A stretch of DNA of 64,000 bases from an uncultured Fibrobacteraceae bacterium (GTDB lineage Bacteria; Krumholzibacteriota; Krumholzibacteriia; LZORAL124-64-63), in the NCBI GenBank assembly GCA_964545545.1, contig CAZJGK010000001.1, forward strand, positions 35,375 through 99,374, given 5' to 3'. A program made the translations under genes and the position numbers. Under the pieces are notes generated by a model. It saw only the letters and a list, made by a program, of their open reading frames with translations, did no database searches and had not been told where the DNA came from. Below, in pieces: positions 34,715 to 49,393 of the stretch; the first letter of the stretch is position 1; each line of letters begins with the position of its first letter.

Positions 34715-36400
34715 CTAGATGGAAACCGGGATTTGCAGACTTTCGATGGCCTGGATGGCCTGCTTGAGGATGATCGGCTTGCCCAGATGCAGGTCCATGC
34801 CCGCCTCCAGGCACCGCCGGGTACTGTCGCTGTCAGCGTCGGCGGTCAGGGCGATGATCGGAATCTGCGCCAGGTGGTCAGTGCGGTCGCGCAGCAATCG
34901 CGTGGCCTCCAGCCCATCCATGACCGGCATGCGGACATCCATGAAGACCAGATCGAAAGCGCCGTGTTCCAGTTTCGTGATGGCCTCTTGGCCATTGACC
35001 GCAAACTCCGGCGTGATGCCGACCTTGTGCAGCAATTTGCCCATGACCACCTGGTTAACCGCATTGTCCTCGGCTACCAGCACCTTCAGGTCGAAACGCG
35101 GCAAAGTCCCGGGCTGAGCGGCCTCTATCTCTGCCACGACCGCCGTCGGCATGGCGAAGGTCACGGAAAAAGTCGAGCCGACGCCAACGGTGGATTGGAC
35201 CACAATGTCCCCGCCCATTTTCCGGGCCAGGTGGTGACTGATAGCCAGGCCCAGCCCCGTGCCGCCGAAGTTGCGCGTCGTGGACTCGTTCACCTGCTCG
35301 AATTGTTCAAAAATGGCCGCCAGGCGATCTTCCGGGATCCCGATACCCGTATCTTCTATGCGCAGAGTGATCATGGCCTGTTCACCGGGTTCTTCGGAAA
35401 CCTCAACGTTCAGGGAAACGCCCCCGGCCTCGGTGAACTTCACCGCGTTGGAGACAAGGTTCAGCGCGATCTGCCGCACCCTGACCGGGTCACCCAGAAA
35501 TCCGCGGGGTGCATCGGCGGGATACCGGAAATCAAGCGAGAGTCCCCGGGCCACCGCCGACGGCCGCAGGATCTGCTCCACGTCCTCCAGTACGGTATGC
35601 AGATCGAAGGGAATCGCTTCAATGGCCATCTTGCCCGAGGTAATCTTCGAGAAATCGAGGATGTCATTGACGATGTCGAGCAAGGAGGATGCCGATCGCC
35701 GCAGGATCTCGAGGTCGCGGCGCCCCTCGGAGTCGATATTTGAATCCTCAATGACCTGGGCCATACCCAGCACGCCATTCAGGGGAGTGCGGATCTCATG
35801 ACTCATGTTGGCCAGGAACACACCCTTGGCCTTCTCCGCGGCCTGGGAGTTCACGAGCTCCGCCTGCAGCTTGCTGTTCAACGCTCCGAGCCGGTTCAGG
35901 ACCGTGAGGAAGAACGAAGGCAGCATCAGGATTCCCCACCAGAGCCCCATCCCCATGAGCAGATTCTCCTGCCAATAGTGGTTGAACCTGAGAACCAAGC
36001 CGAATTCCACGAAGCCCATCGTGGCCGACGCCAGCAGCGTTCTTTTCCCGAACCGAATACCATAACCGACGATCACCCAGAGAAATACCGGATAGAAGAA
36101 CGACCCGAATCGGGCCGCGAAATAGAAAGCCAGGGTTGTGGTCGTGATGTCCATGAACATGGTCACATAGATGCGGGACGGCCGGCCACCCGGCTTCCTG
36201 GTCAGGTACTGATGCCAGAATACGGAAAAAATAAAATGAACCAGAATGATGGAAAGTCCATAAGTCAGGGATCGACTTAGATGCCCGTCACGAATAAGAT
36301 TGAAGGAACCCAATAAAACGAATGTGGTGGAGGATATGCTCAGCCGGCTGATGGACTGGTTTCGCTCCTCACGTCTGCGCAATTCCTGGGATTGGTTCAT
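34715..36400 (-). CDS. Hybrid sensor histidine kinase / response regulator (membrane sensor, HisKA, HATPase_c, REC)
   Basis: Five or six N-terminal TM helices. H-box ANMSHEIRTPLNGVLGM. G-boxes GGTGLGLAISHHLARKMGG. REC domain KVLVAEDNAVNQ...DLVFMDVRMPVMDG. GAGGA RBS. Confidence 0.85.
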   Translation of the reverse strand: MNQSQELRRREERNQSISRLSISSTTFVLLGSFNLIRDGHLSRSLTYGLSIILVHFIFSVFWHQYLTRKPGGRPSRIYVTMFMDITTTTLAFYFAARFGSFFYPVFLWVIVGYGIRFGKRTLLASATMGFVEFGLVLRFNHYWQENLLMGMGLWWGILMLPSFFLTVLNRLGALNSKLQAELVNSQAAEKAKGVFLANMSHEIRTPLNGVLGMAQVIEDSNIDSEGRRDLEILRRSASSLLDIVNDILDFSKITSGKMAIEAIPFDLHTVLEDVEQILRPSAVARGLSLDFRYPADAPRGFLGDPVRVRQIALNLVSNAVKFTEAGGVSLNVEVSEEPGEQAMITLRIEDTGIGIPEDRLAAIFEQFEQVNESTTRNFGGTGLGLAISHHLARKMGGDIVVQSTVGVGSTFSVTFAMPTAVVAEIEAAQPGTLPRFDLKVLVAEDNAVNQVVMGKLLHKVGITPEFAVNGQEAITKLEHGAFDLVFMDVRMPVMDGLEATRLLRDRTDHLAQIPIIALTADADSDSTRRCLEAGMDLHLGKPIILKQAIQAIESLQIPVSI

Positions 36401-36537
36401 ACGGTTTCCTCTTTAACCCCCTCCCTCCGATATCCATAGGTGTTTCGGCGGTTTGTTCCCGGACTTTAGGGATGTCATCCCGTTGCGCGCCGTCACGGCC
36501 CTTTCCCAAGGCTGTCTCGGCCATCCTGCACCCGGTT

Positions 36538-36550
36538 CCCCCCGGGGGGG
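36538..36550. repeat. C6G7 self-complementary tract (CCCCCCGGGGGGG) in a 313-bp divergent intergenic region. An AT-rich inverted repeat TTATTccgcttAATAA lies at 36571-36586.
   Basis: Read directly from the sequence. Confidence 0.5.
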
Positions 36551-36713
36551 TCTCAATGAGCAATCGGCGATTATTCCGCTTAATAATCCTGGATGACCAC
36601 CGGCCTGCTGACTACCTTGGCCCCGGCCACTGAAGCCCCCGCGGAACCTCCGCCGGGTGCTGCGGCCGGAGTCGCCGACAGACCGTCAAGGTCGCAAGGC
36701 GCGGAATACGATC

Positions 36714-37913
36714 ATGAACATCATCGTCTTCAACTGCGGCAGTTCCTCCCTGACTTACAGAGTTTATAGTTCCGAGAATTGTGACGACCTGCGGACTCTG
36801 CTCAAGGGCAAAGCCCACCGGGTGGGCGTCAAGGGGACCGAGCCGTCTTTTATCCAGCATGAGCATGAAGGAACCATCGACAGGCGCGAAGTCCAGATCC
36901 CGGATCACGCGACGGCGGCCAACCTGATCCTCGACAAGGTTGGCGAGTTGGGGATCGATCTGCATTGCATTGGCCATCGCTGGGGCCACGGCCTCGGCCA
37001 ATTCACCACCACATTTCTGAGCACGTCGGTGCTGGAGCAGATGAAACTGACCGTGCCCTTGCTCCCGATCCATCATCCGGCCATGTTGGATGTGATCTCG
37101 ACCTGCCGACGACGATTTCCCCACCTGCCGGATTATGTGACGACCGACAACGCCTTCCACGCCGGCCTGCCGGCCTGCGCGTACACATATGCGATCCCCA
37201 GGGACATGGCTGCCGAGTACAAGTTTCGCAAGTATGGTTTCCACGGACTTTCCTACCAGTATGTGGTGGCCGCCACCAGCGAGTACCTGGAGCTTCCCCT
37301 GGAACGACTCAAGATAATTGCCTGCCATCTCGGCACAGGCGGGTCCAGCGTGGCCGCGGTGCGGGACGGCTCGTCCATTGACACCTCGATGGGATTTTCC
37401 GGGCTGTCGGGCCTGCTCATGAGCACCCGCGCCGGTGACATCGACCCCATGCTTGCGATCTACCTGATGGTGGTCTTCGATCTGAGTTCAGGCGAGGTCA
37501 TCGACCTTTTGAACAAGAAAAGCGGCCTGTTGGGTATGTCGGGCTTTTCCAGCGACATTAGGGACATCATCAAACTCATCGCCAGCGATGAAGAAGCGCG
37601 CTTGGCCTTCGATATGTACGTGCATCGGGTTAAGAAATACATCGGGAGTTACTGTGCTGCTCTCGGTGGATTCGATGTTCTGGTCTTTACCGACGATATC
37701 GGCCAGCACAACTGGCTGGTGCGGGAAAAAGTCTGCCGGGATATGGCGTGGTGCGGCCTGGAGCTTGACGAGGATGCGAATCGGGAAACGGCCACCGAGG
37801 GAATCCGGCAGGTTAGTACGCCACAGTCCAGGGTTTGTGTGTTGGTCGTTCCGACTGATGAGGAGCGCATCATTTGCCTGGAAGGCCTCAAGCTGATGGG
37901 GGGTCAACCATGA
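36714..37913 (+). CDS. Acetate/propionate kinase-family protein (ASKHA). Near-canonical but lacks the GGIGEN motif.
   Basis: FNCGSSS, IGHRWGHG, DNAFH, KYGFHGLSY, IACHLGTGGS, IDTSMG and STRAGDIDP all match AckA motifs. VFTGGIGEN is replaced by VFTDDIGQH. Confidence 0.85.
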   Translation: MNIIVFNCGSSSLTYRVYSSENCDDLRTLLKGKAHRVGVKGTEPSFIQHEHEGTIDRREVQIPDHATAANLILDKVGELGIDLHCIGHRWGHGLGQFTTTFLSTSVLEQMKLTVPLLPIHHPAMLDVISTCRRRFPHLPDYVTTDNAFHAGLPACAYTYAIPRDMAAEYKFRKYGFHGLSYQYVVAATSEYLELPLERLKIIACHLGTGGSSVAAVRDGSSIDTSMGFSGLSGLLMSTRAGDIDPMLAIYLMVVFDLSSGEVIDLLNKKSGLLGMSGFSSDIRDIIKLIASDEEARLAFDMYVHRVKKYIGSYCAALGGFDVLVFTDDIGQHNWLVREKVCRDMAWCGLELDEDANRETATEGIRQVSTPQSRVCVLVVPTDEERIICLEGLKLMGGQP

Positions 37914-39001
37914 TCCTGCTGACCCAGGCCACGCCCGAGGCCTTGAAATGCTGTCAGGTGCAGGACGGCGAACTGCTGAAAACGCTGCACAAGGATGGCG
38001 GCGCCGGCTTGGGTCCGATCTTGTCGGAGCTGGTGGAGGGCCAGAGCATTGATGCTGTCGCGCATTTCGTAGGCCACGGCGGCGCGGAATTCGACCGGTC
38101 CGTTACCCGGCTTCTACCCGGCGATCTCTCGCCGCTGGAACGATGCATCCGGTACCAACCCGAGTGCAACGCCCGGACTTATGAGACGGCGCGCTATTTC
38201 GCCGCGCAGTTGCCGGGAAGCCCACAGTTCGTCTGCTGTGATACGGGTTGCTTCAGTTCGTTGCCGGGTGTGGCGAGCAACTACGGGATTCCCCGGGAAC
38301 TGCGCCAACGCGGTCTGCGACGATTCGGAGGCTATGGTCTCTGCCACGAGCGGGCCTGGGAGCGTACCGTATCCCTTCGCGGCGGCCGGGTTCGGCGGCT
38401 TGTCAGTGTCTACCTTGGCAACACCACCAACGTGGCCGCCATGCGGGACGGCCTCCCCGTGGAGACAACGATGGGCTTTACATCCGTTGAAGGGATTCCT
38501 TCCGACCACGCCTGCGGCGATATCGACCCCACCATCCTGGACCTGCTCTTCCCCAAGGGAATAAGCATCTCCGAAATCACCGGGATCCTTACGACCCGCA
38601 GTGGCCTTACCGGTTTGATGGGGAGGGACACCAGCTTCCGGGACTTGATGCGAGGTAGGGGCCAAGACAGCGACGGCGGTTATGCGGAAGTCTGGGACCT
38701 TCTGCTCTACCATGTTCAAAAGAATATCGGGGCGTTCGTCGCCTCCCTGGGCGGAGTGGACGCCATCGCGTTTTCGAGCGAATATATCCAGGAGTGCGCG
38801 CCGTTCATCGACGAACTTGCCGGGCGCCTGGCGTTTCTGGGTTTGAAGCATACCGATGTGCGGGGGGACGAGAGCGACATCCGCGACATTTCCGCAGCGG
38901 GTTCGCGTGTCGGTGTCGTCTGCCTGCATTACGACAAATGGAAGATCATGGCGGAATTGGTCATGGCTTCGATTAACCGGGAGGTGCAAGATGTCCAATG
39001 A
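37910..39001 (+). CDS. Degenerate acetate-kinase-family paralogue (probable pseudo-kinase)
   Basis: Its ATG overlaps the upstream TGA (ATGA). It aligns with AckA along its length (HFVGHGG, CDTGCF, GYGLCH, YLGNTTN, TTMGF, ACGDIDP, IAFSSEYIQE), but the N-terminal NxGSSS loop, R91, H180, R241 and the GGIGEN residues are all substituted. Confidence 0.7.
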   Translation: MILLTQATPEALKCCQVQDGELLKTLHKDGGAGLGPILSELVEGQSIDAVAHFVGHGGAEFDRSVTRLLPGDLSPLERCIRYQPECNARTYETARYFAAQLPGSPQFVCCDTGCFSSLPGVASNYGIPRELRQRGLRRFGGYGLCHERAWERTVSLRGGRVRRLVSVYLGNTTNVAAMRDGLPVETTMGFTSVEGIPSDHACGDIDPTILDLLFPKGISISEITGILTTRSGLTGLMGRDTSFRDLMRGRGQDSDGGYAEVWDLLLYHVQKNIGAFVASLGGVDAIAFSSEYIQECAPFIDELAGRLAFLGLKHTDVRGDESDIRDISAAGSRVGVVCLHYDKWKIMAELVMASINREVQDVQ

Positions 39002-39785
39002 CAAAAAGTTCTTGGTCGATGTCGGCCTGGGAGGCCTGGTTTTTCCGATCACGGTCCTCTCCAAGGGGAAGCCCGAGGGGCAGCAGACCGTGGCCACCAT
39101 TTCCATCAGTGCCCGGATCATGCATGAGTTCGAGGCCTTCTGGATCGACAGGTTCATCCAGATCCTGCACAAGCACCGCGACAACATCGGCCAGACATCG
39201 TTCAAAACAAACATCAAGGATTATGCGACCGCCCTGGGTGCCGAAGCGGTCAGCATCGAATTCAGCTACCCGTTTTTTATCGAGAAAACTACGCCCGTCT
39301 CCGGAGAGAAATGCTTGGTCAAGTACAACTGCGTTCTTTCCACCAAGCTTCCCACGCTTGAGAAGGTGCCGCCGGTCTTCCTACGCATTGATGTTCCGGT
39401 GCTGACGACCTACCCCCAGAGTCAATCCGGCCTGCCGTACGGTCTGTTCGCCCAGCAGAGCGTTGTGGCGCTGGAGACCCACTCCTTTACCGATCTCTTC
39501 GTGGAAGATCTGGTCGAGATCGTTGAGTCACATGCGCTTTCCCCTGTCTATTCGTTCCTTACCGATGAGGACCAGGCGTTCCTCATCAAGAAGCTGCACA
39601 CGGAATCCCAGACAAGCGTTATGATGCTCGATGGCGTCCGGCAGAAAATGGCGAGCAACAAGGACATTGACTGGTTCTCCGTGCGTTGCGCCAATTTCGG
39701 CATGTTGCATTCCTACAACACCACCATCGGAGCCGAGAAGAGCCTCTGGATACCATACAGCGGCGGAAGTGATGACGGCATCTAG
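38991..39785 (+). CDS. FolE2/MptA-family (GCHY-1, DUF198) T-fold protein lacking the conserved CPC(S)KE metal-site cysteines
   Basis: GGGAGG RBS. It overlaps the ack2 end by 11 nt. FPITV...TVA...SIEFSYPFFIEKTTPVSG resembles the FolE2 signature (SFPWFFERK.P). Where FolE2 has LCPCSKE, this protein has TTYPQSQS. Confidence 0.6.
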   Translation: MSNDKKFLVDVGLGGLVFPITVLSKGKPEGQQTVATISISARIMHEFEAFWIDRFIQILHKHRDNIGQTSFKTNIKDYATALGAEAVSIEFSYPFFIEKTTPVSGEKCLVKYNCVLSTKLPTLEKVPPVFLRIDVPVLTTYPQSQSGLPYGLFAQQSVVALETHSFTDLFVEDLVEIVESHALSPVYSFLTDEDQAFLIKKLHTESQTSVMMLDGVRQKMASNKDIDWFSVRCANFGMLHSYNTTIGAEKSLWIPYSGGSDDGI

Positions 39786-39840
39786 CCCGGTGGCATGATC
39801 CTGGGCGTTCAGCGTGTGGACCGCGGGAACTTAGGCGGAA

Positions 39841-41265
39841 CTATCGGGACCACTCGGCCGTGATCACCTTGATCATGTTGGTCGGCATCTTCTGGGCGAA
39901 CGGCACCCCTGCGGTCAGCACCACCGGATCCCCGGGGCTGACAAAGCCACCCTGCAAGGCCCTGTCCAGGGCGACCTGCTCAAGTTTTTCGACGGTTTGG
40001 GCCAGATCGATTTCCACCGGCACCGCGCCGAAGGTCAGGGCCATGCGCAGGGCCGTTTCACGTTCAGGCGTCAGGGACAACACAACCTGCCGCGGACGAT
40101 AACGGGCCACCCGCAGGGTGGTGTTGCCGCTGCGGGTGCAGGTCAAGATGGCGGCGGCTCCGATATCCTCGGCCATCTTCACGGCCGCATGAGCCACGGC
40201 GTCGCCGAAACTGAGTTTCTGGGACCCCGCGAACTTCTCGGTCCAACCTTCGTAATCCAGCTGCCGCTCCGTATCGGCGGCGACCCTGGACATCACCTGC
40301 ACCGCCTCGACCGGATAGGCGCCTATGGCCGTTTCCTCGCTCAACATGATGGCGTCGGTGCCGTCGTAGATGGCGTTGGCGACATCGGTTACCTCGGCGC
40401 GCGTCGGCCGCGGGCTCTCCACCATGGACTTGAGCATCTGGGTGGCCGTGATCACCGGTTTGGCCGCGGCGTTGGACCGGGCGATGATCATCTTCTGGGC
40501 GCGAGGCACCTGCTCCAGGGGAATCTCCACCCCCAGATCGCCCCTGGCCACCATGATTCCGTCGGCCACGACGATGATCTCCTCGATGTTCTCCAGGGCC
40601 TCGAACTTCTCGATCTTGGCGATGAGCGGTGTGTCCTTGCCCGCGGCCTGGATGACGTGTTTGGTCGTTTCGATATCGTGGGCCGTGCGCACGAAGGACA
40701 AGGCCACGAAATCCACGCCCTGCTGCAGGCCGAACTCCAGGTCGGCACGATCCTTGGCCGAGAGAATCGGCGCGTTGAGCGTACGGCCGGGCAGGTTGAT
40801 GCCCTTGTGGGAGCCGAGCATCCCGCCGGTGACCACGCGGCAGTTGATGTCCGTTGTGCTGGCCGACTCGACCTGCAGTTCCATGGCTCCGTCCGCCAGC
40901 AGGATGGCGTCTCCGGCACGCACGCTGCGCGGCAGGTCGTGATAGGTGAGGCCGACTTCCTCCCCGCTGCCGGGAACTTCCCGATTGGTCAGCACGAACC
41001 GGGCCCCCTCCTTGAGCTCGATCTCGCCGGGGGCCATAGCCCCGGTGCGGATCTTGGGACCGGCCAGATCCTGCAGGATGGCCACGGGCGCCCCCATTTT
41101 CCGGGACACTTCCCTGATGTCCTTGATGAGCTCAGCGTGCTCGGCGTGGGTGCCGTGGGAAAAATTCAGGCGGCATACATTCATGCCCGCCTCGATCAGT
41201 CGGGCCAGTATTTCCGGATCCCGGCTGGCCGGTCCGATGGTGCAGATGATCTTGGTCTTGATCAT
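39841..41265 (-). CDS. pyk: Pyruvate kinase
   Basis: MIKTKIICTIGPAS...NFSHG...; MVARGDLGVEIP; 474 aa. Confidence 0.9.
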   Translation of the reverse strand: MIKTKIICTIGPASRDPEILARLIEAGMNVCRLNFSHGTHAEHAELIKDIREVSRKMGAPVAILQDLAGPKIRTGAMAPGEIELKEGARFVLTNREVPGSGEEVGLTYHDLPRSVRAGDAILLADGAMELQVESASTTDINCRVVTGGMLGSHKGINLPGRTLNAPILSAKDRADLEFGLQQGVDFVALSFVRTAHDIETTKHVIQAAGKDTPLIAKIEKFEALENIEEIIVVADGIMVARGDLGVEIPLEQVPRAQKMIIARSNAAAKPVITATQMLKSMVESPRPTRAEVTDVANAIYDGTDAIMLSEETAIGAYPVEAVQVMSRVAADTERQLDYEGWTEKFAGSQKLSFGDAVAHAAVKMAEDIGAAAILTCTRSGNTTLRVARYRPRQVVLSLTPERETALRMALTFGAVPVEIDLAQTVEKLEQVALDRALQGGFVSPGDPVVLTAGVPFAQKMPTNMIKVITAEWSR

Positions 41266-47719: not shown

Positions 47720-49393
47720 CTATTTGATTATGATGCATCGCTTCCACTCTGTCCGGCCATGGGCCTCCAGCGAATAGAGATAGATGCCGCTGGGAAGTCC
47801 CTGGGCATCCAGGGTCACGTGCTGCATCTCCTTGGCTGAAGCCTCGCTGGCGACCGTGCGCAGGCAGCGGCCGCGGACATCGTACAAACGCAGGGTCACT
47901 TCGCCGGCCTCGGCAACCCGGTAGGAAATCCGGGTTGAATTCCGGAAGGGATTGGGCGCGTTCTGGTCCAGTTCGATCATCTGTTCGGAGACCTTCGGTC
48001 CATCCGGTACGGCGGAAACATCGATGAAACCCGCTCTCTGCAGGCCGGCCCGGATATCCGCGTTCCCCATCATCCGGTCCCAGATGCCCCCGTTGAGATA
48101 GTTCTCGATCATGATGACGATGGGACCCTCATCGATCCCCAGGTAGTCCGAGCCCCACCAGAACTGGGTGAGGTTGAACGCATCCTTGAAACCATACTTC
48201 CCCCAGAGCATGGAGCCGTAGTTGTCGTACATGTTATGCAGAGCGGGCAGGACGATCTCGGGCGCAAAGGCGATGGAACCCGCCGCCGCGGTGGGGGTGA
48301 TCGTCCCGTTGTCGTTCTGGGCCGGGGGGGCGCCGTGGGCCAGGTAGCCGCCGGGATCGTCCGAGGCCGTCAGGCCCCACAGGTCCGCGCCGTAGCCGGC
48401 CCAGCCACTGGGATTGGCGATGCAGTATTCCCGGGCGGCAATGGTCGCCCGGCGGGAATTCTCGAAATAATCGATGCCGTGCAGACGCATATACGCGTCC
48501 CTCAGGTCACGAAAATCAATCCAGCAGTGGGAATACTGATGGCCGAACAGCGGCGGAAAGTTCACATAGATCTGGCCGTATTGCAGGCTCCAGTTGTAAC
48601 CGCTCGTCCAGTAGGCCCAGGTATAATCGGGGACCGGATGGGTGGGCGAACCCAGGGCCAACAGGTACAGGACCATGGCCTCGTTGTACCCCACCCAGGT
48701 GCCGTAACCGCTGAAACCCGTGTTCGGCTTCCAGCCCATGCGGATGCCGTTGCCGCCGTTGCGAACGAACTCCCAGTCCACGCGGTAGTACAGGGAATCC
48801 GAAAGGGCCCGCACCTCGACCTCGCCGGGATCCTCGCCGGTGAAGTACTGCTTGGCGTCGATGACACCGGCCATGAGCAGGGCCGTGTCGATGGTTGACA
48901 ATTCCGAGCTCCAGGTTCTCAGGCCGGAATTGATATCCAGGAAATGGTAGAACAGGCCCTTGTAGCCGTTCGTATTGTATTCGGTGTCGCCCTGGGGTCC
49001 GTTCCACAGGGTCTGCATGCCCAGCAGGATGCGGTCGCGTCCCTCGCTGCGGGATATCCAGCCGTGGTCGATGGCGATGCAGATGGCGGTGATGCCGAAA
49101 CCCTGGGCTGCGATGCTGCAGGCGGACCCGGGCTGGCTGCGGTCCCGGATCAACCCATTGACCGGATTGGCCTCGTCCCAGAAGTACAGGAAGCCCGTGC
49201 GCTGCAGGCTGTCCAGCAAGGCCTCGTCCGTCAGGGATTTCAGGGCGGGAACTGTCAGGCTACGCTGCGAATTCCCGGCGAGGACAGGGCCGGCCGACGA
49301 CCCGATCAGGAACAGGGCGACCAGCAGTCCCAGCCTGATCCTGCTCCCCGATAGACCGTGCATCCCACCATGATATGTCGTTTGCTTGATCAC
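47720..49393 (-). CDS. (alpha/alpha)6-type glycoside hydrolase, glucoamylase-like (GH15/GH144-related, tentative), with a T9SS C-terminal sorting domain
   Basis: GTG start with GAGGAG upstream, then a signal peptide. FLYFWDEANPVNG resembles the glucoamylase general-acid region LWEEVNG. The C-terminus ends GIYLYSLEAHGRTEWKRCIIIK. The family assignment is from memory only. Confidence 0.7.
   Translation of the reverse strand: MIKQTTYHGGMHGLSGSRIRLGLLVALFLIGSSAGPVLAGNSQRSLTVPALKSLTDEALLDSLQRTGFLYFWDEANPVNGLIRDRSQPGSACSIAAQGFGITAICIAIDHGWISRSEGRDRILLGMQTLWNGPQGDTEYNTNGYKGLFYHFLDINSGLRTWSSELSTIDTALLMAGVIDAKQYFTGEDPGEVEVRALSDSLYYRVDWEFVRNGGNGIRMGWKPNTGFSGYGTWVGYNEAMVLYLLALGSPTHPVPDYTWAYWTSGYNWSLQYGQIYVNFPPLFGHQYSHCWIDFRDLRDAYMRLHGIDYFENSRRATIAAREYCIANPSGWAGYGADLWGLTASDDPGGYLAHGAPPAQNDNGTITPTAAAGSIAFAPEIVLPALHNMYDNYGSMLWGKYGFKDAFNLTQFWWGSDYLGIDEGPIVIMIENYLNGGIWDRMMGNADIRAGLQRAGFIDVSAVPDGPKVSEQMIELDQNAPNPFRNSTRISYRVAEAGEVTLRLYDVRGRCLRTVASEASAKEMQHVTLDAQGLPSGIYLYSLEAHGRTEWKRCIIIK

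Follow-up and report, generated by a model that had tools for sequence, protein, structure and literature searches.

Background

Two described systems lie closest to the locus reported here. One is FolE2, the type I GTP cyclohydrolase of the Pfam family PF02649, represented by the proteins of N. gonorrhoeae (3D2O), B. pseudomallei (8G6C) and N. europaea (NE1163, 2R5R) and encoded with folate, queuosine or Zur-regulon genes. In the B. pseudomallei enzyme the metal ligands are Cys154, His166 and Glu208, Cys156 is S-nitrosylated, Glu250 is the proposed active-site base, and Arg205 and the conserved His253 are also named (PMC11573665). The other is the acetate kinase of Entamoeba histolytica (EhACK), as of 2017 the only acetate kinase known to use pyrophosphate (PPi); an extra Gly203 in its PHOSPHATE2 motif and the loss of Gly331-Ile332 from its ADENOSINE motif set it apart as a phosphate (Pi)/PPi-dependent enzyme, and occlusion of the pocket is not the sole determinant of its Pi/PPi use (PMC5517563). 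As of 2022 its role was undefined, and the partner enzyme supplying its acetyl phosphate had never been identified (PMC9983610). Relatives of both systems meet in a stretch of 64,000 nucleotides (hereafter the window) from an uncultured Fibrobacteraceae bacterium (contig CAZJGK010000001.1, positions 35,375 to 99,374), where a gene that we call folE2L follows two acetate-kinase-family genes, ack1 and ack2. An earlier note, made from the letters of the window alone, had described the folE2L product as a FolE2-like T-fold protein lacking the metal-binding Cys-Pro-Cys. Here we find that FolE2L has acetate kinase as its conserved genomic partner, in place of folate or queuosine genes, and that the protein appears to have lost every residue for cyclohydrolase chemistry that we tested, which is more than the note had seen.

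The T-fold barrel has been reused, with a re-lined interface pocket, in QueF, QueF-like proteins, QueD/PTPS, dihydroneopterin aldolase and urate oxidase, all of which act on purine, pterin or 7-deazaguanine substrates. FolE2L resembles FolE2 in sequence and none of these other T-fold paralogues, and we know of no T-fold paralogue of changed function that is linked to acetate kinase; such a linkage would surprise specialists of folate and T-fold proteins and of acetate kinases alike. A literature search found no paper on the FolE2L subfamily, the ack1-ack2-folE2L triad, the Ack2 pseudokinase or a bacterial clade resembling EhACK, absence from the searched literature being no proof.

A T-fold protein of the FolE2 family

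The stop codon of folE2L occupies 39783-39785, and an identical 264-aa protein is a called gene in the public record (P0001). A longer open reading frame (ORF) from 38856 overlaps the upstream gene in a different frame; since all the homologues use a start equivalent to the ATG at 38991, as does the called record, we place the start there. The earlier note had proposed an alignment to PF02649 as a check of the family, and the match is significant and nearly full length (E 3.7e-28; 99.2 bits against a cut-off of 25), with residues 8-243 covering model positions 15-257 of 260. An AlphaFold2 (AF2) model built on 57 homologues, with a mean predicted local confidence (pLDDT) of 84.3 and a predicted TM-score (pTM) of 0.82, consists of two beta-beta-alpha-alpha-beta-beta modules, i.e. 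a bimodular T-fold. The top Foldseek matches to this model were exclusively FolE2 entries (TM 0.78-0.82, 24-26% identity; TM 0.82 to 8g8v and 8g6c), followed by urate oxidases at an E-value of about 1e-5, which places the model in the T-fold superfamily. Family membership of FolE2L as a bimodular T-fold protein is thus confirmed at the level of sequence and predicted structure.

PF02649 and the bimodular T-fold are common to FolE2L and canonical FolE2, and so are the motif (Y/F)P(F/Y)FxxKxxPVSG and the residues P142, S144, Q155, E172, D194 and H240. The FolE2 signature segment that the earlier note thought recognizable is SYPFFIEKTTPVSG. The canonical KGTHMSRF, in contrast, has become EAxWIDxF, and FolE2L has an extra conserved C-terminal tail, in which K250, W253 and P255 are invariant within the subfamily and which lies in a region of low model confidence (pLDDT below 50 for residues 253-264). 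The curated models separate the groups further: FolE2L scores 77.8 bits with the NCBIfam FolE2 equivalog NF010200, below its cut-off of 215. With the models for MptA/GTP cyclohydrolase IV, the archaeal branch of PF02649 that shares the Pfam family and the T-fold with FolE2L but not its bacterial distribution or its genomic context, the scores are 13.1 against a cut-off of 220 (TIGR00294) and 17.1 against 468 (NF010204). Source databases nevertheless label the relatives of FolE2L, from many phyla, as GTP cyclohydrolase I, IB or FolE2.

Replacement of the active-site residues

The phmmer alignments of FolE2L to 2r5r, 8g6c and 3d2o (E 5e-25 to 5e-20) all place VPVLTTYPQSQSGLPYGLFAQQSVV opposite VPVTSLCPCSKKISxYGAHNQRSHV, and a joint MAFFT alignment of 25 FolE2L subfamily members with 35 canonical FolE2 sequences has the same register. 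Since the three pairwise alignments and the joint one agree, the Cys-Pro-Cys segment has not moved elsewhere in the protein. The absence of this segment, as claimed in the earlier note, therefore holds, with TTYPQSQSGLPYGLFAQQ standing at its site, and the mapping onto N. gonorrhoeae FolE2 that the note had suggested leads, through the 3d2o alignment, to the same segment. For the mapping to B. pseudomallei FolE2 (Table 1), the chain index of 8g6c was taken as the residue number of PMC11573665 plus 34.

The residues that replace the three metal ligands, Tyr141, Phe153 and Gln195, are each 88-100% conserved in the FolE2L subfamily, and the changes extend well beyond them. Positions that are conserved within both groups have switched from Cys to Tyr141, His to Phe153, Arg to Leu156, Lys to Thr191, Glu to Gln195 and Glu to Val210, and further group-wise switches are Arg to Asp214, Glu to Gly237, Ser to Met238 and His to Tyr242, so that the canonical basic residues R, K and R are now Leu156, Thr191 and Asp214. 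The lysine and serine of KGTHMSRF have likewise become E48 and D53. The valine at position 210 is invariant in FolE2L; this position corresponds to Glu216 of N. gonorrhoeae FolE2, which we take to be the substrate-anchoring glutamate of the T-fold. Canonical FolE2 has 30 invariant positions; at 27 of them FolE2L carries other residues that are conserved to 85% or more, a level reached by 112 of its 264 positions as a whole (odds ratio 15.8, Fisher p = 1.3e-8). Because the formerly invariant positions are still highly conserved, with new residues, the old active site seems to have been re-lined rather than abandoned. Polar residues retained in the region of the old pocket are Q155, S157, D194, N235 and H240.

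With replacements at all three metal ligands, at the proposed base and at basic residues of the pocket, the view of the earlier note that FolE2L is unlikely to be a GTP cyclohydrolase is well founded, and metal-dependent hydrolytic opening of GTP by FolE2L is, going by the roles of these residues, very unlikely. The database calls of GTP cyclohydrolase for this group are very probably wrong, and FolE2L should be filed neither as FolE2 nor as MptA, because it departs from the functional family in four ways: a curated score below the cut-off, no metal ligands, no catalytic base, and another genomic context. Where reconstructions of the metabolism of uncultured anaerobes trust such names, they would credit these organisms in error with the first step of folate and queuosine synthesis. 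The idea that new cysteine ligands have taken over in FolE2L was considered and rejected: Cys114 is also a cysteine in 69% of canonical FolE2, Cys108 aligns to a canonical serine and is missing from P0125 and P0136, two divergent members, and Cys233 is only about 90% conserved, with Ala or Ser in some members.

Distribution and selective constraint

A search of 5.8 billion clustered proteins gave 554 homologues of FolE2L, of which the best 120 are 53-64% identical to it and 257-316 aa long (mostly 259-265 aa), with Acidobacteria, Elusimicrobia, Omnitrophota, Phycisphaerae, Nitrospinota, Actinomycetota and others among their sources. Among representatives clustered at 50% identity, there were few full-length matches at 40-53% and one at 32%, compared with 22-32% for canonical FolE2, and only 16 reached an E-value of 1e-30 or better. 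A scan of species, one genome each, found 147 relatives; the 80 of these that were kept come from more than 25 named bacterial lineages, including Krumholzibacteria (the closest, 61%), Fibrobacterota, Myxococcales, Ignavibacteriota, Aminicenantes, Spirochaetes, Geobacter, Brocadiaceae, Kiritimatiellia, Zixibacteria and KSB1. The carriers are mostly anaerobic or uncultured lineages, and FolE2L forms, with the best 120 homologues among its members, one tight orthologous group at 50-64% identity.

This group is under strong constraint. Nei-Gojobori dN/dS of folE2L is 0.02-0.18 for the 23 of 25 close pairs in which dS is unsaturated, mean column identity is 67-71% across phyla, and the reading frame is intact in all 83 coding sequences (the window and 82 loci). 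FolE2L (50-61% identity) is as conserved as the active Ack1 (48-58%) and far more so than Ack2 (32-44%). The key residues are the same in FolE2L from triads, from pta-ack loci, from Geobacter and from solitary contexts, and identity between contexts, about 0.6, equals that within them; the proteins of all contexts on this basis form a single orthologous group, presumably with one molecular function.

Some individual members deserve mention. The FolE2L proteins of L082 and L086, from metagenome-assembled genomes (MAGs) labelled Spirochaetota and Bacteroidetes, are 89% identical with a dS of 0.45, where 55-60% is typical between phyla, so that either a recent horizontal transfer or an error of binning or labelling has occurred. 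The only long relative, P0122 (483 aa), has residues 1-300 of Ack1 fused to FolE2L from about residue 81 onward, with no Ack2; rather than a designed fusion it is probably a chimera produced by misassembly or by a deletion. In L171 (799-2445) folE2L occurs in tandem, a typical copy (55% identical to the window protein) being followed by the divergent P0124 (43%), which lacks the TTYP, GLFGQ, NFGMLH and C-terminal tail motifs; a sigma-54 activator comes next.

Linkage to acetate kinase genes

The gene neighbourhood was surveyed from two sides, in 82 non-redundant genome or contig loci centred on FolE2L, with up to 6 kb on each side, and in 80 metagenome loci centred on Ack2, found by scanning contigs with an Ack2 profile. 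The triad is present in 42 of the 82 FolE2L-centred loci, in either of two gene orders, folE2L-ack1-ack2 in Acidobacteria, Aminicenantes and Polyangiaceae and ack1-ack2-folE2L otherwise. An ordinary ack gene stands directly upstream of folE2L in another five, and where this was examined it is preceded by pta (pta-ack-folE2L), while in about seven Geobacter loci ack, pta and a gene for acetylating acetaldehyde dehydrogenase lie within 4 kb of folE2L. Seen from the other side, folE2L adjoins ack2 in 58 of the 61 Ack2-centred loci that have at least 800 nt beyond ack2, the start of FolE2L is visible in 11 further, shorter loci, and Ack1 is present in all 49 with room upstream. The linkage to ack spans members at 32-43% identity, more than 25 lineages and both gene orders: the locus of P0136 (32% identity) reads ack1-ack2-folE2L, that of P0127 (42%) folE2L-ack1-ack2, and P0124 (43%) is the second copy in tandem behind ack2-folE2L.

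All-against-all clustering of the ORFs of these roughly 160 loci left Pta as the sole other recurrent neighbour (16 loci), the remaining clusters being antisense shadows of the three genes and lineage-specific synteny. The roughly 160 loci show no recurrent folate, pterin, queuosine or purine gene, nor the context typical of FolE2, with folate or queuosine genes or zinc-starvation regulons. A role for FolE2L as a substitute for phosphotransacetylase was considered and rejected, since Pta adjoins FolE2L in those 16 loci, among them pta-ack-folE2L operons and one pta-ack-ack1-ack2-folE2L array. This array, in an actinomycete MAG (L051, 1492-6792), carries pta, an ordinary ack of the HLGNG type, ack1, ack2 and folE2L on the same strand, and the two kinds of acetate kinase side by side are presumably non-redundant.

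Two further irregularities were seen. In L149 (6035-6550) and L151 (6035-6800), blastn self-comparison at an offset of about 150 nt reveals internal repeats between ack2 and folE2L; past the repeats L149 carries folE2L and L151 diverges without it, which suggests a rearrangement or misassembly at the repeats. In L169 (2510-3706), the most divergent triad locus, a gene on the same strand for a 398-aa protein without a Pfam match overlaps the start of ack1 and could encode a lineage-specific fourth component.

The partner proteins

Ack1 keeps the catalytic residues of the Methanosarcina enzyme (N7, R91, H123, D148, F179, H180, R241, D283 and E384), each of them in 38-40 of the 40 triad copies. 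In the two motifs by which EhACK is set apart it resembles that enzyme more than the ATP-type acetate kinases. The PHOSPHATE2 motif has the extra glycine of EhACK, HLGTGG(S/A)S in all 39 readable copies of the 40 and HLGTGGSS in the window, and the ADENOSINE motif has lost its glycine in both (FTDDIG in Ack1, within the FTDDIG..NW of every readable copy, and FTDQMG in EhACK, as against FTAGIG in the ATP type). The likeness is not complete, in that Ack1 has Asp-Ile in place of Gln-Met, with Asp330-Asp331 in 39 of 40 copies and Ile332 kept where EhACK has Met. EhACK (4h0o) is also the closest match of Ack1 in the Protein Data Bank (320 bits); it is 43-47% identical to the Ack1 clade and 33-41% to ordinary bacterial acetate kinases from the same loci, and it joins the Ack1 clade in 200 of 200 bootstraps of a neighbor-joining tree of 362 columns with limited taxon sampling. 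By its residues and its place in the tree, Ack1 belongs to the Entamoeba PPi-type lineage of acetate kinases and is catalytically intact; it may use Pi/PPi. In bacteria, however, ack1 is accompanied by a pseudokinase and FolE2L, neither of which Entamoeba is known to have.

The Ack1 of the window shows a peculiarity of its own. In its GHRWGHGLGQF segment a Trp-Gly pair takes the place of the Phe-Val or Val-Val found in the clade consensus and in other acetate kinases (V92-V93 in MtACK); of 40 clade members, only 5 have glycine at position 93. Since Val93 of MtACK limits acyl-chain length, the window Ack1 may, by analogy, accept larger acids.

In Ack2, on the other hand, practically every one of the 41 copies is without N7, the PHOSPHATE1 serines, R91, H180, R241 and E384. 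D148 is kept, and Ack2 adds a separate set of invariant residues, C15, E85, C110-D111, C202 and W344; judged by its residues it is a pseudokinase. Acetate kinases are dimers, and an Ack1-Ack2 heterodimer is therefore plausible. Ack2 is almost never found without FolE2L, while FolE2L does occur without Ack2. This asymmetry suggests that FolE2L is the primary functional unit and Ack2 adaptor-like.

Discussion

What the analysis shows is the fold, the loss of catalytic residues, strong purifying selection, an old pocket that is still constrained, and the linkage of the genes; from these we infer the rest, namely complex formation, a ligand, a role of the tail and the use of Pi/PPi by Ack1. The reading that we favour, and that we would as soon see fail as hold, is that FolE2L is a functional, repurposed paralogue of GTP cyclohydrolase IB that acts as the non-kinase partner, i.e. 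a ligand-binding, regulatory or adaptor subunit, of an acetate-kinase pair at the acetyl-phosphate/acetate node. The protein would keep its bimodular T-fold but no longer open the GTP ring by means of a metal, and the metal-free former pocket, with its aromatic and neutral lining, would bind some ligand, though not GTP. The C-terminal tail, W-x-P-(F/Y)-S, which is conserved but disordered, could be a docking motif for protein contact, and Ack2 would be the adaptor linking FolE2L to the PPi-type Ack1. Given that the metal ligands and the basic and acidic catalytic residues were lost and that Tyr, Phe, Leu, Val and Met were gained, a less polar, non-nucleotide ligand would fit the re-lined pocket better than GTP, PPi or acetyl phosphate. 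Substrate binding only, as offered in the earlier note, is possible for FolE2L. A PPi- or triphosphate-binding subunit was also considered and is disfavoured, the R, K and R of the canonical pocket and the lysine of KGTHMSR having become L156, T191, D214 and E48.

A number of points weigh against this partner-subunit reading. No ack gene lies within 2.5 kb of folE2L in 34 of the 82 FolE2L-centred loci, and in about 27 of these 34 none was found in up to 6 kb per side, several of these loci being at contig ends; where ack-less loci were examined, folE2L was a lone gene among unrelated neighbours. Neighbouring genes, besides, need not be partners, whether physically or functionally. The placing of the switched residues in one pocket is deduced from homology to FolE2, and the most divergent triad member, P0136, lacks Tyr141, Phe153, Gln195, Gly237 and His240 while keeping H60-x-H62, K99, E106, D194 and Y242. 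Since P0136 drops pocket residues and keeps H60-x-H62 and the others, the essential surface of FolE2L may lie elsewhere than in the old pocket. A new metal site of histidines and carboxylates (E46, E48, H60, H62, H203) may also exist. Finally, such strong constraint on the pocket would be no less expected of an enzyme than of a regulator.

It can accordingly be asked whether FolE2L is instead a new metal-independent enzyme of C2/acetyl-phosphate metabolism, one that would form, use up or repair a metabolite at the node of acetyl-CoA, acetyl phosphate, acetate and acetaldehyde, for example by supplying acetyl phosphate to Ack1 or by using it as an acetyl donor. We regard this as possible but would not rely on it. 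The 27 of 30 old active-site positions that are conserved with new residues are typical of a catalytic or high-specificity site, FolE2L is conserved to the same degree as an active kinase and far above the pseudokinase, and it associates with Pta, Ack and acetylating acetaldehyde dehydrogenase; moreover, the supplier of acetyl phosphate to the Entamoeba PPi-dependent enzyme was never identified (PMC9983610). We cannot, however, name a candidate reaction, a cofactor site or a nucleophile. Cys114 is common in canonical FolE2, Cys108 is lost in two divergent members, P0136 does not keep the pocket residues, and the Pta beside FolE2L in 16 loci argues against a simple replacement of that enzyme. 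The partner-subunit reading is ranked above this one, but the evidence separates them poorly.

Readings closer to the ancestral function fare worse. Purines or pterins, bound at subunit interfaces, are the usual ligands of T-fold proteins, Q155, S144, D194 and H240 are common to canonical FolE2 and FolE2L, and about one third of the loci have no ack gene nearby, so that FolE2L could bind or transform a purine or pterin other than GTP and the adjacency to ack could be meaningless. We think this improbable, with the canonical glutamate at 210 an invariant valine, the basic R, K and R replaced by L156, T191 and D214, none of the corresponding pathway genes recurring in the loci, and an adjacency to ack that is seen in more than 25 lineages, in either gene order and in members as distant as 32% identity. 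The valine at 210 and the lost basic residues speak against a purine or pterin triphosphate as ligand, and with the neighbourhoods they leave the other purine or pterin chemistry that the earlier note had entertained unsupported. That FolE2L is still a GTP cyclohydrolase, or is MptA-like, with different catalytic residues could draw on the PF02649 match and the FolE2 fold, on the invariant His and Glu elsewhere in the protein (E48, H60, H62, H203, H240) and on the names that source databases give to its relatives. The replacement of ligands, proposed base and basic residues, the scores against the curated equivalogs (78 vs 215, 17 vs 468, 13 vs 220) and the lack of a folate or queuosine context in the loci surveyed leave it very little chance. 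Smaller still is the chance that folE2L is a decaying, functionless relic of folE2: the loss of the ancestral catalytic residues would fit, but the dN/dS values, the column identity across phyla, the intact frames and the translational coupling in the operon do not, and the selection analysis excludes it.

The partner-subunit reading can be extended, in a form that we put forward as tentative and rather doubtful, to a three-component machine of anaerobic energy metabolism, in which the PPi-type Ack1 works only together with the pseudo-Ack2 and the pseudo-cyclohydrolase FolE2L. FolE2L would add an activity or a substrate or effector site, e.g. acetyl-phosphate turnover coupled to the formation of PPi or to another acceptor, and the bacterial module would be the source of the Entamoeba PPi-acetate kinase. 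If it is true that the three proteins form a dedicated machine, the triad would deserve to be ranked higher in novelty. In FolE2L we seem in any event to have a clear instance of a metalloenzyme scaffold that has lost its chemistry and is strongly selected in a different pathway, beside a second pseudoenzyme, Ack2, in the same operon. A large bacterial sister clade of EhACK with two obligate-looking partner genes also offers a route to the determinants of Pi/PPi use and to the partners of the kinase. Questions about PPi-dependent acetate kinase thereby become experimentally approachable in bacteria, with anaerobes that have a PPi-dependent glycolysis as the obvious ones to turn to.

Operon features and surroundings

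In the window, the stop codon of ack1 and the ATG of ack2 overlap as ATGA, and the last 11 nt of ack2 overlap folE2L, so that folE2L is the third, translationally coupled gene of an ack1-ack2-folE2L operon. The features of the locus and the residue correspondences are collected in Table 1.

Table 1. Features of the ack1-ack2-folE2L locus and counterparts in FolE2L of named residues of B. pseudomallei FolE2
Feature	Window position	Strand	Basis or remark
ack1, 399-aa acetate kinase	36714..37913	+	PF00871, 349 bits; motifs; tree
ack2, 363-aa acetate-kinase-family pseudokinase	37910..39001	+	PF00871, 138 bits; called gene on record
Shine-Dalgarno-like GGGAGGTG, 4 nt upstream of the folE2L ATG, within the 3' end of ack2	38979..38986	+	read from sequence
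folE2L, 264-aa FolE2-derived T-fold protein without metal ligands	38991..39785	+	ORF and translation; PF02649; AF2/Foldseek
Retained family motif SYPFFIEKTTPVSG, residues 92-105	39264..39305	+	P94, F96, K99, P102 conserved in subfamily and canonical FolE2
Segment TTYPQSQSGLPYGLFAQQ, residues 139-156, in place of LCPCSK...GAHNQR	39405..39458	+	alignments to 2r5r, 8g6c, 3d2o; conservation
C-terminal tail EKSLWIPYS, residues 249-257	39735..39761	+	conserved in subfamily; columns mostly gaps in canonical FolE2
Cys154, replaced by Tyr141			metal ligand
Cys156, replaced by Gln143 in the window protein			nitrosylated; variable position in subfamily
His166, replaced by Phe153			metal ligand
Arg205, replaced by Asp192 in the window protein
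Glu208, replaced by Gln195			metal ligand
Glu250, replaced by Gly237			proposed base; Gly invariant in FolE2L
His253, kept as His240
His255, replaced by Tyr242

Flanking the operon are an opposite-strand gene for a hybrid histidine kinase and a convergent pyruvate kinase gene, and no folate-related gene is among the window neighbours of folE2L. Farther downstream, on the minus strand (47720-49393), the window encodes a putative glucoamylase with a C-terminal sorting domain of type IX secretion (Por_Secre_tail). Taken with the nearest FolE2L relative, which belongs to a Krumholzibacteria MAG, this points to an FCB-group bacterium of about 62% G+C as the source of the window. A promoter and terminator scan of window positions 36300-40000 gave matches at chance level.

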